From: Candidatus Saganbacteria bacterium
Lineage (GTDB): Bacteria > Margulisbacteria > WOR-1 > O2-12-FULL-45-9
Direction of reading: 5' to 3'
Assembly (NCBI GenBank): GCA_013204645.1
Contig: JABMSE010000112.1
Location: 4 to 64,003, forward strand
Length of the DNA: 64,000 nt
A program made the translations under genes and the position numbers. Below are positions 44,550 to 60,053 of this stretch, one piece after another (within the stretch, counting starts at the first letter, position 1; every line of letters starts with the position of its first letter). The notes under the pieces are model-generated. The model had not been told where the DNA came from. It saw only the letters and a list, made by a program, of their open reading frames with translations, and did not search any database.

Positions 44550-45518
44550 CTATGCCAAAACAAGCTTCTTCCACCACTCCTGGTTGTTATAATACCAGCG
44601 AATTGTTTGGGAAAGGCCCTCCTTGAGTTGCGTTGTGGGTGCCCAGCCCAATTTTTTTATTTTCGAACAATCAAGCGCATATCTTCTATCGTGGCCTAGG
44701 CGATCCTTAACATATTTTATTAAATCTTTCGGCTTACCCAGTTCATCTAAAATCATTCGGGTTATAGCTATATTTTCTTCTTCGTTGTCTGCTCCGATAT
44801 TATAGATCTCCCCTACCACCCCTTTTCGTAAAACTAAATCAATGGCCTCACAATTATCCATAACATACAGCCAATCCCGCACGTTTTTACCATCGCCCTA
44901 CAAAGGCAATTTCTTATCCTGCAAGGCATTAGTTATAAAGAGGGGGATGATCTTTTCGGGATACTGTAAAGGCCCATAATTATTAGAAGAACGGGTGATA
45001 ATGGCTGGTAAATTGTAGGTCTTAAAATAAGCACGAACCAGGAGATCTCCTCCTGCCTTGGAGGCTGAATAAGGGGAATTGGGAGACAAATTCGATTCCT
45101 CTGTGAAAGAGCCTTTTTCAATGCTACCATACACTTCATCGGTTGAGATGTGGATATAACGGCCAATATTATTCTTTTTAACAGCCTCAAGCAATATATG
45201 CGTGCCAAAAACATCCGTTTGCACAAAAGAGCCCGCAGATACAATTGAGCGGTCAACATGCGTTTCAGCAGCAAAATTGACGATGGCATCGATTTTAGGC
45301 AACAAACTCAAGGCTTTGTCAACGGCACCTGAATCAGAAATGTCACCCTTAAAAAACCTATAGCGTGGCTCCTTTTCTAGGTCGGAAAGATTAGAAAGAT
45401 TGCCGGCATAGGTTAAATTGTCAAAATTGAGTATTTCATCTTCGGGATAGTTAGAAAGAATATAGTGGATAAAATTGCTGCCAATAAATCCGGCACCACC
45501 AGTAACAAGAAGCTTCAC
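44550..45518 (-). pseudogene. rfbB: dTDP-glucose 4,6-dehydratase interrupted by an in-frame TAG
   Basis: The N-terminal ORF (44898..45518) and the C-terminal ORF (44550..44882) are in the same frame. The only break is a TAG at 44898-44900, replacing the conserved Tyr of the ...LP(I/L)YGDG(K)NVRDWLYV motif. This is a one-nucleotide change, TAT to TAG. Confidence 0.7.
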
Positions 45519-53131: not shown

Positions 53132-53620
53132 CTAAAATATTTTCCCTGCGAATTGTGCTTTCAACTTATTTCCAAGTTTAGCATGCAAAGGGTTTTTATA
53201 AAGTCCTGAAAGAAGCTCAGAAACCACGGCCCGCTCCCGCGGAAGAGAAAGTAGAGCCTCTTCTTTTTGTTGCTCGGTAAAAAGTGATAAAAGAAAAGCA
53301 ATCATCTGCGGCCGCTCATAAACCAGCATAGTATAAGATTTTTTTGGCACTGGAGGGGGTGCCGGGGGCACTTCCCTTTGTTCCAGCTGAGGTGGAACTT
53401 CGCCTGCGTTAGGAAGGGCCAAAAAGCCCTTAAATTCATCCAAAACTTCCGAAAGGGCTTGTGGAGAGGGAGAAGGTAGGTGATTAATGCCTGAAGCAAT
53501 TAGATCGGCTAACTCATCCGGCAAATAACGCAACACCCGGGCCGAGGTATCGGTACCTAAGATTGACAAAAATATCGTGGCCTTTTCTCTTCCAGATAAA
53601 GGCATTACTCTGACAACCAT
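53132..53620 (-). CDS. fliG: FliG-like protein, N-terminal domain only (truncated rotor/switch protein)
   Basis: LSGREKATIFLSILGTDTSARVLRYLPDELADLIASGINHL...ALSEVLDEFKGF matches FliG_N. This is followed by a short segment resembling the start of the middle domain. The ORF is only 162 aa and ends with TAG, 3 nt before the fliH ATG. No C-terminal torque domain is encoded. Confidence 0.55.
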   Translation of the reverse strand: MVVRVMPLSGREKATIFLSILGTDTSARVLRYLPDELADLIASGINHLPSPSPQALSEVLDEFKGFLALPNAGEVPPQLEQREVPPAPPPVPKKSYTMLVYERPQMIAFLLSLFTEQQKEEALLSLPRERAVVSELLSGLYKNPLHAKLGNKLKAQFAGKIF

Positions 53621-55956: not shown

Positions 55957-56262
55957 CTACCTCCTTCCCTGACTGGTTATATTCTTTAAGACATTTATTT
56001 TGCTGGATAAAAGCTTGATATAACTAGAATATTTTATAGAGTTATCTGCCAGGGCTGCCAGTTCGTCCTCTAAAATAACATCTTTTTTGTCCGACCTCTC
56101 TACCGCACGCATCAGATGCTCATCAAAAGTAAGCGCCGTAAAACCTGGAGTTTTTGCGTTTGCGATATTATGCGAAATCACTTCCTGCCAACGAGTGGAA
56201 ATATCCATGGCCCTTTCAAGCTGATTAAACTGCGCATCAAACATTTCAATCGGTCTAGACAT
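55957..56262 (-). CDS. flgB: Flagellar basal-body rod protein FlgB
   Basis: ERAMDISTRWQEVISHNIANAKTPGF N-terminal rod motif. ~100 aa. Confidence 0.65.
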   Translation of the reverse strand: MSRPIEMFDAQFNQLERAMDISTRWQEVISHNIANAKTPGFTALTFDEHLMRAVERSDKKDVILEDELAALADNSIKYSSYIKLLSSKINVLKNITSQGRR

Positions 56263-56983
56263 GTTTAAGCTTCCCTTGAATTACACTTATAACCTTTGAA
56301 AGCACCCGGCACACCTTGGGGCGCGATAAATCTAGTCGTTTTGCAATCGTTTTCTGATTCAGGCCATTATGATAAAATAGTTTAGCAACTTTTCTTTGCA
56401 GAGGAGGAAGCCCCTCAACAATAACCTTTATCCTATCTTTGAGTTCAGCAAATTCAAATTCAGCGGCGGGGGTAGATTCACTGGGAACCGGAGCCTCAAC
56501 CCCAATGCCTGCCATCTCCTCAACCGAAAGAAGATACATAAGAGCTGAAGCCGAAACAATTTTCTTAATTCTTTTAATAGCTTGTTTAAATTCGCCCTCG
56601 GTTAACTCCTTTTTCTCTAAAAGTTCATCATCCTTTTTTTCCTTTTTGGAGACTACCATAGAGGAGAATCCCCTCTTTGCCAAATCCCTCACCATAACCT
56701 GAACCCGATAAGGAACTGGATTGTAATTTTTAAAGCCATCCAGAATTTCCCCCCTAATGCGATAAGAAGCATAAGTTTCAAACTTAACCCCACGATTTGG
56801 GTCAAAATTCTCCCAGGCCTTCATGAGCCCTACTGTTCCATCCGAAACCAAATCATCATATTCAATATTAGGCGGCAACCCTTTACCCGAAACCATAGAA
56901 GCAATGGAATGGACCAGCGGCATATAGGCCTCAATTGATTTTGGCAAAGGTTTATTCTGTATTTTTTTCTTTAGTTTATTCAT
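56255..56983 (-). CDS. fliA: Sigma-70 family sigma factor, FliA (sigma-28)-like
   Basis: Region 2 (DDLVSDGTVGLMKAWENFDPNRGVKFETYASYRIRGEILD) and a region 4 HTH (QKTIAKRLDLSRPKVCRVLSKVI). ~240 aa. Embedded in the flagellar operon. Confidence 0.65.
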   Translation of the reverse strand: MNKLKKKIQNKPLPKSIEAYMPLVHSIASMVSGKGLPPNIEYDDLVSDGTVGLMKAWENFDPNRGVKFETYASYRIRGEILDGFKNYNPVPYRVQVMVRDLAKRGFSSMVVSKKEKKDDELLEKKELTEGEFKQAIKRIKKIVSASALMYLLSVEEMAGIGVEAPVPSESTPAAEFEFAELKDRIKVIVEGLPPLQRKVAKLFYHNGLNQKTIAKRLDLSRPKVCRVLSKVISVIQGKLKHV

Positions 56984-57312
56984 TTGACTTCAACTGCTTT
57001 AGAAAAAGTTGGAAAAACATTTTCAGCCGAAAAGGTCTTACTTTTTACCAATTCCAAAGCAAGTTTATTCACAAACATATCAGACCCAAAACGCGAACTC
57101 AAAAAATCATTATCTTTGTCATCTCCACTAAAATTAGGCGTCTTAAAGGCCTGCTTAAAAACCTCCCGATAAAAAATCACCATGAATTCATCTTTAATGC
57201 TTTCACGGGCAGCCTGCGTTTGTGCGTGGCTAGCTGCCACAATAATCTCATTCATTTTTCTGGTATCAGGAGAAGATCCCATTTGGCTTAGCGCAGTAAT
57301 TTCCGAAACCAT
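56980..57312 (-). CDS. flgJ: Rod-binding (FlgJ N-terminal-like) protein
   Basis: DEFMVIFYREVFKQAFK resembles the Rod-binding domain consensus (FEamflqqmLksmr). 110 aa. Sits in the expected position directly after flgI. Confidence 0.45.
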   Translation of the reverse strand: MVSEITALSQMGSSPDTRKMNEIIVAASHAQTQAARESIKDEFMVIFYREVFKQAFKTPNFSGDDKDNDFLSSRFGSDMFVNKLALELVKSKTFSAENVFPTFSKAVEVK

Positions 57313-58571
57313 TAAATCACCTCAAGTTCTGCCTTTATGGCACCAGCTCTTTTCATGGCCTGCAAAATAGCAATTAGGTCCTTGGGGGTAGCCCCAATCG
57401 TGTTTAACCCGCGCACTAGTGTTGATAGGGTTGCTCCCCCCTCAACCAAGGTTAACTTTCCTTCGGTTTTCTTTAATTGGGCATTTGAACGTGCAAGGTA
57501 ATAGCTTTCATCCAAAACCGAATCTTGCGTGTACCCTTCCGAAAAAAGAGAAACATTCCCAATGCTTACATCGATTCCCGCATAAGAGACCGCTACCGGA
57601 GAAATCTTCACATTTTCACCAATTACAATCGTTCCAGTACGCTCATTAACCACAATTTTGGCAACTACATCTGGGACAATAGTCAAACTCTCAATACGTG
57701 AGACAAGCTCAACAATATCATCATCATCGGAAATTGGAACGGTAATCGTAGCCGCATCGAGAGCCAAAGCTTCCAAGCCAATCCTTCTAATTGAGGAAAC
57801 CAAGCGACTTGCCGTAGTAAAATCTGGCTCATCCAAAACAATGGTAAGCAACTCCTTATTAGTGATTGAAACCGGCACTTATTTTTCAACCAAGGCCCCC
57901 CCCGGAATTCGGCCAACCGTGGTCTGACCATGTCTAACATATGGAATAGAAGGGGTGGTGGATTCCAGGCCAATTAGGAGGCTACCCTGGGCCACTGCAT
58001 AAACCTCCTCATTAACCCCTTGAAGGGGTGTAATCAATAGGGTTCCGCCTTGAAGAGAAGTTGCATCCCCCATAGACGAAACAGTAACATCCATTTTTTG
58101 CCCTGGCTTTACAAAAGATGGAAGGGTTGCCGTAACCATAACCGCTGCTACATTTCTTGATTTAAAATCAACTGACTGGGGTACAACTCCCATTCTGGAC
58201 AACAAATTGGTCAAGGCCTGCTGGGTAAAACCGGTTTGACTTCGGTCCCCGGTGTTTTTTAGGCCAACCACCAAACCAAATCCCATTAACTGATTATCCC
58301 GTGCTTCTAAGACATGAGCTATATCTTTTACTCTAACGGAGGGGGATTGAGCAGATGCAAAATACTCCGCCTGCGGCGGACAAACTACAAAGTACAAAAT
58401 ACAACCCAAAAACAAAATTTTCTTAATAACTTGTGCCTTGTGCCCTCGTCCTGAGGTCTGGCCCAACATGACTCGGTCCGAAGGATTTGTGCCTTGTAAC
58501 ATTATTTGCTTCCTCCTAAAAGATCCAATTAAAAAGCCGAGTAATCCAACCCGGGGACTCGGTGTCCGCAA
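57312..58571 (-). pseudogene. flgI: Flagellar P-ring protein FlgI interrupted by an in-frame TAA
   Basis: The N-terminal part (57879..58571) and the C-terminal part (57312..57878) are collinear with full-length FlgI and lie in the same frame. A single TAA at 57879-57881 sits where E. coli FlgI has Glu (VERELP; here VEK*VP). Confidence 0.7.
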
Positions 58572-59238
58572 TCACGCCAGTCCCTCTTACGGAAACCTCA
58601 GCATTAGCCACCTGATAGGAATAAACTGTATTCTCGCCACTTAGATCTTTAGGTCGAACAATTCCGCTTACTGTAATCTCTTGCATTTCATCATTTACCT
58701 CGACCTTATGTCGTCCACGAATTTCAAGATTACCATTGGGAAAGACATTTGTAACCCAGGCCGCCACCCGAGCAGAAACATCATTGCTGCGGGTTGTCTC
58801 CCCATCCCCAGTAAATTTATTCGAGACTTGTCCCGTTACCTGGTTGGAGGCTCCAATTATAGGAGCCAAGCGCTGAATAGTATGGGCAAACTGTAGCCCC
58901 AAATCATCCCTGACATTCGTTTTAGTCCTAGCTTTATTCTTAGCACTGGTGTTCTCCATGATAATAACATTTACAATATCTCCCACGCGGTAAGCCTTTT
59001 GGGCGTTGTAAGGTGAAGCACTATTATCATTCCAGACAGAATCTGCTCTCACAGGCAAGATAGAAAAATAAGCTACAAGAGACAAGATACAAAAACCAAA
59101 TAATAACCAATAACCAATATTCAACATCCAAATTGAAGGCCTTTGAAATTTGTTTTTTGGAATTTGCAATTTATTTGAATCTTGTACCTTGTATCTTGTA
59201 TCTTGCATCTTGTGTCTTGTATCTTGTGCGTTTATCAT
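58516..59238 (-). CDS. flgH: Flagellar L-ring protein FlgH
   Basis: ...YRVGDIVNVIIMENTSAKNKAR...GNLEIRGRHKVEVNDEMQEITVSGIVRPKDL... is a canonical FlgH core. The likely true start is the Met at ~59127 (MLNIGYWLLFGFCILSLVAYF signal peptide). The longer ORF reaching 59238 reads through the heptamer array. Confidence 0.75.
   Translation of the reverse strand: MINAQDTRHKMQDTRYKVQDSNKLQIPKNKFQRPSIWMLNIGYWLLFGFCILSLVAYFSILPVRADSVWNDNSASPYNAQKAYRVGDIVNVIIMENTSAKNKARTKTNVRDDLGLQFAHTIQRLAPIIGASNQVTGQVSNKFTGDGETTRSNDVSARVAAWVTNVFPNGNLEIRGRHKVEVNDEMQEITVSGIVRPKDLSGENTVYSYQVANAEVSVRGTGVIADTESPGWITRLFNWIF
59181..59229. repeat. Seven tandem copies of heptanucleotide CTTGTAT (degenerate: CTTGTAC/CTTGCAT/CTTGTGT/CTTGTGC)
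   Basis: Seven contiguous 7-nt units read directly from the sequence. The array lies between the flgA stop (59235) and the flgH signal-peptide Met (~59127). Confidence 0.85.
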
Positions 59239-60041
59239 TTTAACACCACCTCAACTTCTCCTGGGGCAATCAGAATTCCCTCCAGGGTTTTTTTTGTCTC
59301 TTTTTTTCTTACCGTTATCTTGCCACCTATATAGCCATCCATTAAGGCTATCCCGCTCGTTTTCAGCAACAAATTAGGCGCCCTTACGAAAATCGTAACT
59401 GAATCCCCACGCCGGGCTTGCGGAACTTCTTTTATCATCCAAGAAAACACGGTACTATTTTGGGGGATGGTTGTTTTTGCTTCTCGGCCAGAAACTTGAT
59501 CAAAAGAAGTGAAATATTTCTGCGGTAACATTGCAATATCTCTTTTTTCTAAAGCTAGATCGTCTCTTTTTATCTCCTGGCCACGTTTAATTTTTTTCGC
59601 CGCCGCCACAATACCTAAAAAAACCTCAACCTTTGCTCGAATAAAAATGGTGCTTTTATCCTTTCCATCAAAAACCTCGATGGGAAAAATAACATTGCCC
59701 ACCGGCCTAAAATCTTTATAAGTTTCTTTTATTTTTAAATCAGCATTAGGAGACAGACCACGCAAGATATCAAATGCCTTATCTGCCATCCGATAAGTGA
59801 CGGAAATATCCAAACCCGTAAGCTTCGGATCATAGGAAATGACCAAGCCTTCTACGAGTTTGGTAACCTTCTGTTCAGGATTATCCAAGGCAGCAGCTGG
59901 AATCGATAAAATACAAGATACAAGACACAAGATACAATAACCAAATAATATCCGATATCCAATATCCAACATCCAAATTGGAGATTTTTGAAATTTGATT
60001 TTTGAAACTCGTAATTTATTTATATTTTGTATCTTGGTCAT
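59235..60041 (-). CDS. flgA: Flagellar basal-body P-ring formation chaperone FlgA
   Basis: C-terminal SAF/FlgA domain (...GDSVTIFVRAPNLLLKTSGIALMDGYIGGKITVRKK...). The likely start is the Met of MLDIGYRILFGYCILCLVSCILSIPAAA, at ~59972. Confidence 0.65.
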   Translation of the reverse strand: MTKIQNINKLRVSKIKFQKSPIWMLDIGYRILFGYCILCLVSCILSIPAAALDNPEQKVTKLVEGLVISYDPKLTGLDISVTYRMADKAFDILRGLSPNADLKIKETYKDFRPVGNVIFPIEVFDGKDKSTIFIRAKVEVFLGIVAAAKKIKRGQEIKRDDLALEKRDIAMLPQKYFTSFDQVSGREAKTTIPQNSTVFSWMIKEVPQARRGDSVTIFVRAPNLLLKTSGIALMDGYIGGKITVRKKETKKTLEGILIAPGEVEVVLK

Positions 60042-60053
60042 TGTTTCTTTTTC

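Follow-up and report, generated by a model that had tools for sequence, protein, structure and literature searches.

A premature ochre codon in flgI of a Candidatus Saganbacteria metagenome contig, probably a recent strain-level knockout allele

In Salmonella and E. coli mutants of flgA, flgH or flgI, flagellar assembly stops at the rod stage. FlgI is the flagellar P-ring protein, and in solved P-ring structures it forms a 26-mer ring. In-frame stop codons have a second context in uncultivated bacteria, in which genetic codes 4 and 25 read TGA as an amino acid. Here we analyze a 64,000-nucleotide stretch of DNA (hereafter the window) from a Candidatus Saganbacteria bacterium, which comprises nearly all of a 64,029-bp MAG contig (JABMSE010000112.1) whose proteins are deposited as NQT30054 to NQT30076. 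In this window flgI lies next to flgH and flgA (matched by the FlgI, FlgH and ChapFlgA profiles), an order that is kept in the comparison loci L006, L007 and L008, and its reading frame is interrupted by one TAA codon. The features of the gene, in window coordinates, are as follows.

57312-58502, minus strand: flgI (flagellar P-ring protein), 396 aa if read through, with a stop as codon 208
57879-57881, minus strand: ochre TAA in flgI, at the position of Glu-208 (GAA in other assemblies), from a G-to-T change at window base 57881
57879-58502, minus strand: FlgI N-terminal ORF, 207 aa including the predicted signal peptide, deposited as NQT30073.1
57312-57878, minus strand: FlgI C-terminal remnant, 188 codons, covering positions 156-343 of the Pfam FlgI profile
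58350-58502, minus strand: predicted Sec signal peptide region of FlgI, assigned by eye from the translation

The six-frame ORF list contains two minus-strand stretches, 57879-58571 and 57312-57878, that abut in the same frame, and the minus-strand translation of 57312-58571 reads ...GRIPGGALVEK*VPVSITNKELL... across the junction. Pfam PF02119 aligns to the upstream ORF over profile positions 1-153 of 343 (E 5.7e-61) and to the downstream ORF over positions 156-343 of 343 (E 9.4e-46). The two halves are collinear, as the original prediction had stated, and flgI is one gene interrupted by one codon. That prediction had placed the gene at 57312-58571; the position of the stop is correct, but the start is not. 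The true start is almost certainly ATG 58502 and not TTG 58571. The ATG has an AGGAGG 9 nt upstream, and the same start is called on an intact allele described below.

On inspection of the translation, the FlgI N-terminus shows an n-region of basic character (KAQVIKK), a hydrophobic core (ILFLGCILYFVVC) and a motif of the cleavage type, ASA/QS. This predicted signal region lines up with N-termini of relatives that are hydrophobic but variable and immediately precede the conserved SPxVRIKDIA. The C-terminal remnant, which opens with GTG immediately after the TAA, lacks a signal peptide, and the sequence 5′ of the remnant shows no Shine-Dalgarno sequence at a useful distance from that GTG. The gene's own terminator (57312-57314) is also TAA and shares bases with the next gene's ATG (TAATG). 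The interrupted allele is already present in the public record: a protein entry (P0124) matches the 207-aa fragment exactly and is recorded on one contig only across the whole protein collection.

We compared the window protein with 25 FlgI proteins from Margulisbacteria and Saganbacteria that are 60-79% identical to it. The column occupied by the stop is Glu in 25/25 relatives, and the solved Vibrio-type P-ring proteins also have Glu at this position (VEREVP), in agreement with the originally predicted interruption at a conserved Glu. The matches to these solved proteins extend over residues 49-396, with E values of 4.8e-72 to 7.9e-69. The closest homologues come from Candidatus Margulisbacteria, WOR-1 and Saganbacteria, with a best BLASTP identity of 80%. 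The best 120 homologues, all at 80% identity or less, range from 322 to 400 aa (nearly all at least 340 aa), and none of them is split. The C-terminal half, past the stop, shares 68% identity with the relatives, vs 66% for the relatives among themselves, so that by this comparison it appears to have undergone no measurable decay or extra divergence.

A look-up of the 110-aa gene downstream of flgI recovered two further contigs that span the stop, L002 (JGI 3300032738, 1790 bp) and L003 (Logan SRR28106056, 1442 bp). These correspond to window 56922-58711 and 56922-58363, respectively, and align without gaps, with mismatches at 57881 and 58118 only. Base 57881 is G in both contigs, giving GAA (Glu), and T in the window, giving TAA; the one-base change from GAA to TAA that the original prediction had assumed is therefore seen directly against two otherwise near-identical contigs. 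L002 encodes an intact 396-aa FlgI at the same coordinates as the window gene. A 36-mer pattern across the stop, with N at the variable base, matches L002 and L003 and gave 0 matches in metagenome and genome collections, which lack the L002 and L003 samples. Exact-product look-ups of the C-terminal ORF, FlgH, the N-terminal ORF, the sigma factor and the RfbB N-terminal fragment returned no record, likely because of GTG or alternative starts or because the source contig is excluded. Two further differences lie upstream of the stop.

58118, minus strand: Pro129Ser in flgI, private to the window contig (C, CCT in L002 and L003; T, TCT in the window)
59700, minus strand: synonymous Val difference in flgA (GTG in the window; GTT in L009 from JGI 3300032738 and in L010 from Logan SRR28106056)

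Residue 129 of FlgI is Pro in 23/25 and Ala in 2/25 relatives; none (0/25) has the Ser of the window. Four contigs of JGI 3300032738 (L004, L001, L002 and L009) tile window 41806-63166, or 21.4 kb, and over this length there are four real differences (44898, 57881, 58118 and 59700), corresponding to ~99.98% nucleotide identity. Three of the four fall within 1.8 kb (57881-59700), with 237 bp between 57881 and 58118, and at these three positions the Logan contigs L003 and L010 side with the JGI contigs against the window. L001 (11.7 kb) has zero differences to the window, as does the rest of L009 (3.5 kb). A fifth mismatch, at 45181 against L004, was discounted, as it is covered by a 29-nt fold-back artefact with which that contig terminates.

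We note some features of these assemblies in their own right. Positions 1-29 of L004 are an inverted copy of sequence ~200 bp along the same contig (window 44976-45004, plus strand), a hairpin or fold-back artefact. The JGI 3300032738 contigs break at window 56922-56925, 45186-45194 and 58703-58711. The Logan contig L003 stops at 56922 as well. A break base shared by two independent assemblies suggests that more than low coverage is involved, such as a branch point due to a strain variant or a repeated k-mer.

The second nonsense site that had been predicted in the window, in rfbB, also exists.

44550-45518, minus strand: rfbB (dTDP-glucose 4,6-dehydratase), with TAG at 44898-44900 replacing the Tyr of LPLYGDG

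Solved dehydratases carry LPLYGDG or IPIYGTG at this position. L004 (JGI 3300032738) has TAT (Tyr) at the site, and L005, from a different sample (JGI 3300032608), has TAG. L005 carries three further nonsynonymous transversions downstream of the stop, at window 44806, 44787 and 44742 (within 65 bp), one of which places Asn at a conserved hydrophobic position of GE(I/V)YNIG. The rfbB TAG is thus independently replicated on at least two haplotypes, and the L005 haplotype seems to be decaying further, a pattern that fits a real, segregating, decaying pseudogene allele. Systematic error, which had been offered as a cause of the paired stops, does not account for rfbB, since the TAG appears again in the assembly of another sample. 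Nonsense alleles do segregate in this population, and such loss-of-function polymorphism at rfbB makes a real flgI stop more credible a priori.

The rfbB gene belongs to a ~45-kb surface-polysaccharide cluster (window 1-45500), almost all on the minus strand, that adjoins the flagellar cluster. It includes glycosyltransferases of families 1, 2, 4 and 9, a DegT-type aminotransferase, NDP-sugar dehydratases and epimerases, nucleotidyl transferases and a Wzx-like flippase.

The original prediction also described fliG as truncated. The relevant features are these.

53132-53620, minus strand: short FliG, 162 aa, the lineage-typical form and not a truncation
L006 14786-15253 and L008 14886-15344: short FliG counterparts, between fliF and fliH

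The FliG encoded on L001 is identical to that of the window. A WOR-1 genome encodes a FliG of 155 aa and a further Saganbacteria genome one of 152 aa, in both cases within the order fliF - fliG - fliH, and the three proteins share 60-65% identity (75% mean column identity). A database search returned at least 120 protein clusters of short FliG, 141-168 aa in length and 57-72% identical, and the named clusters are all from the Margulisbacteria phylum. The window protein has a match to the FliG N domain and a weaker one to the beginning of the middle domain; the short form has a conserved YERPQ that resembles the EHPQ motif, and it lacks the C-terminal torque-generating domain. A FliG of ~150-165 aa, invariably located between fliF and fliH, is thus the conserved norm across Margulisbacteria, WOR-1 and Saganbacteria and is under clear constraint. 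Literature searches turned up no description of this short form and no helpful papers on flagella of Saganbacteria or Margulisbacteria or on the JGI and SRA sample identifiers.

Elsewhere in the window, the fliK-like, flhB-C-like, flgF, flgG, flgA, flgH, sigma factor, flgB, flgC, fliE, fliF, fliH, fliI and fliJ genes are full length, and the flagellar gene order is that of relatives.

Two small genes of the cluster are without a Pfam match in the window, namely a 110-aa gene after flgI (56980-57312, minus strand) and a 101-aa gene before flgC (55957-56262, minus strand). L006 and L008 encode counterparts of both genes, 99-106 aa long, and the L008 counterpart of the 101-aa gene has a weak Flg_bb_rod match. 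By this similarity the 101-aa gene may be a short FlgB, and the 110-aa protein could be a FlgJ-like rod cap or another lineage-specific flagellar component.

The 5′ ends of flgH and flgA are covered by a 141-nt direct repeat, whose copies (81% identity) are located at window 59064-59204 and 59909-60049. It contains runs of CAAGATA-type heptamers and internal inverted arms, and it encodes similar N-terminal segments of the flgH and flgA products (…KFQRPSIWMLNIGYWLLFGFCILSLV and …KFQKSPIWMLDIGYRILFGYCILCLV). The repeat is either a small palindromic repeat element or the result of gene conversion between two signal-peptide regions, and the true starts of flgH and flgA may be internal ATGs.

Several explanations of the flgI stop can be weighed against these data. 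We favor, as the probable one, a very recent knockout allele, created by a G-to-T change on the coding strand and private to the strain of the MAG, in a species that normally has an intact FlgI. The clustering of three differences, together with the agreement of two independent datasets against the window, has the look of a linked haplotype and not of scattered errors, and by the Pro129Ser change (237 bp upstream of the stop) and the silent flgA difference (1.8 kb from it) the flgA-flgI segment is recognizable as a haplotype of its own. That the contig is continuous over 64 kb, with its other genes intact, argues against a generally poor assembly. An error of consensus, sequencing or assembly, by which the true codon is GAA and both the TAA and the TCT at 58118 stem from low coverage, mis-corrected reads or a mixed-strain consensus, strikes us as unlikely, though it is the main rival reading. 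The TAA allele is found on one contig only, while two other datasets that are ~99.9% identical carry GAA and CCT; both private coding differences are damaging and fall in one gene, with no further decay, and the population's other assemblies are fragmented and contain artefacts such as the L004 fold-back. However, three errors within 1.8 kb beside the error-free 11.7 kb of L001 and 3.5 kb of L009 would be unusual for a continuous 64-kb contig, one of the three differences is silent, as natural variation predicts, and the sister stop in rfbB is replicated in another sample. Nor were indels or frameshift-split genes seen in the window, and a six-frame scan of the 64 kb identified flgI and rfbB as the only genes broken by a single in-frame stop. 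(Four overlapping ORF pairs that looked suspicious were considered as frameshift halves and rejected, each representing separate complete genes or distinct domains.) Clustering of three differences in 1.8 kb is weakly significant, at a probability of ~0.08 by a rough scan-statistic estimate not computed by a tool, and a local coverage dip could be an alternative source of it. Nonsense changes make up 2/4 of the differences vs 4.2% expected for random substitutions (P ~0.01, biased because the regions were picked for their stops), an excess that may point to artefact rather than selection. A broader variant of the knockout reading, that both nonsense alleles are real and reflect ongoing selection for loss of the flagellum and of dTDP-rhamnose polysaccharide (e.g., imposed by phages or grazers whose receptors are surface structures), with knockout and intact alleles coexisting at ~99.98% identity, is speculative, and we consider it rather improbable.

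Two further explanations fare much worse. The original prediction had proposed that the flagellar apparatus is decaying or repurposed, with the flgI stop and the short fliG as symptoms. An interrupted flgI and a FliG without its torque domain would be in keeping with long-term decay, but we regard this as very unlikely: the short FliG is phylum-wide, constrained and of the same length in at least 120 clusters, every other flagellar gene of the window is full length and in the order of relatives, the flgI lesion is one base away from an intact conspecific allele, and the C-terminal half of the window FlgI is as similar to relatives as these are to one another. Taken together, the conserved short FliG, the intact neighbors and the conspecific GAA refute decay as the explanation of the stop; a phylum-wide unusual motor, separate from the stop, is possible. 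The stop could instead be tolerated or programmed, through a suppressor tRNA, an altered code or a two-piece gene with TAA-GTG stop-start coupling. Here the GTG that directly abuts the TAA makes reinitiation conceivable, and there are two nonsense sites within 64 kb. However, of the window's 66 non-nested ORFs with 100 aa or more (flgI TAA and rfbB TAG included), TAA terminates 37, TGA 17 and TAG 12, so all three stops are in use, TAA is the commonest, and it also ends flgI. The flgI and rfbB sites differ in both the stop codon and the residue replaced (Glu vs Tyr), near-identical contigs carry sense codons at both, and in the 64 kb there is one gene-interrupting in-frame TAA. Scans of the window found no tRNA gene and no Rfam element. 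A split gene is at odds with the undivided FlgI of the best 120 relatives, with the single 396-aa ORF of the conspecific allele, and with the C-terminal piece, which has neither a signal peptide nor a well-placed Shine-Dalgarno sequence. By these comparisons, recoding, suppression and the split gene appear to be effectively excluded, and the suggestion of suppression in the original prediction is not supported.

Returning to the knockout allele, we infer that the TAA is present in cells, beyond the consensus alone, and that it causes loss of function, along the following lines. The allele would be carried by the strain that dominates the MAG contig. Translation would stop after 207 residues, or ~157 of ~345 mature residues, yielding a truncated precursor that lacks the C-terminal 188 residues of the P-ring protein; if real, this would be a null allele. 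Reinitiation at the GTG would yield a C-terminal piece that lacks a signal peptide and so could not reach the periplasm, the site of P-ring assembly. By analogy with the Salmonella and E. coli flgI mutants, no LP ring would form, and assembly would halt at the rod, leaving the cell without flagella. Lost translational coupling could also reduce expression of the downstream genes.

Whether an ordinary strain-level knockout or a consensus error, the flgI stop is of very little consequence beyond annotation quality. In practice, the public FlgI fragments (NQT30073.1 and its neighbor) should be read as one interrupted gene, and the MAG is not usable as an argument for Saganbacteria without a P ring or with a non-standard code. 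Should the allele be real, it would be a modest instance of loss-of-function polymorphism among surface-structure genes in an uncultivated lineage. The phylum-wide short FliG poses the more interesting question, one about the flagellar motor of this lineage.

Among known systems, stop-codon reassignment as in codes 4 and 25 bears a superficial likeness to this locus, in that an in-frame stop interrupts a conserved gene. It differs in that the codon here is TAA, the main terminator of the window, at one site in 64 kb where conspecific contigs have GAA. Consensus errors and strain-mixture artefacts of MAGs are closer, as contig-private substitutions break a conserved gene for which other assemblies show the expected codon; in contrast to such errors, the differences here are clustered and one is silent, there are no indels, the contig is long and clean, and the rfbB stop is replicated. 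Strain-level pseudogenes of surface structures (flagella, O-antigen and rhamnose pathways) offer a further parallel, drawn here from two genes in one 64-kb window: the flgI and rfbB stops segregate against intact alleles at ~99.98% identity, and one rfbB haplotype has accumulated extra nonsynonymous changes past its stop. Finally, flgI nonsense nulls of Salmonella enterica and E. coli differ from the present case, which is a metagenome contig of an uncultivated Saganbacteria lineage with an unusual short FliG, known from sequence only. The likeness lies in the lesion itself, since in each the stop removes the C-terminal half of a Sec-exported P-ring protein, and neither an LP ring nor an external flagellum would be expected.
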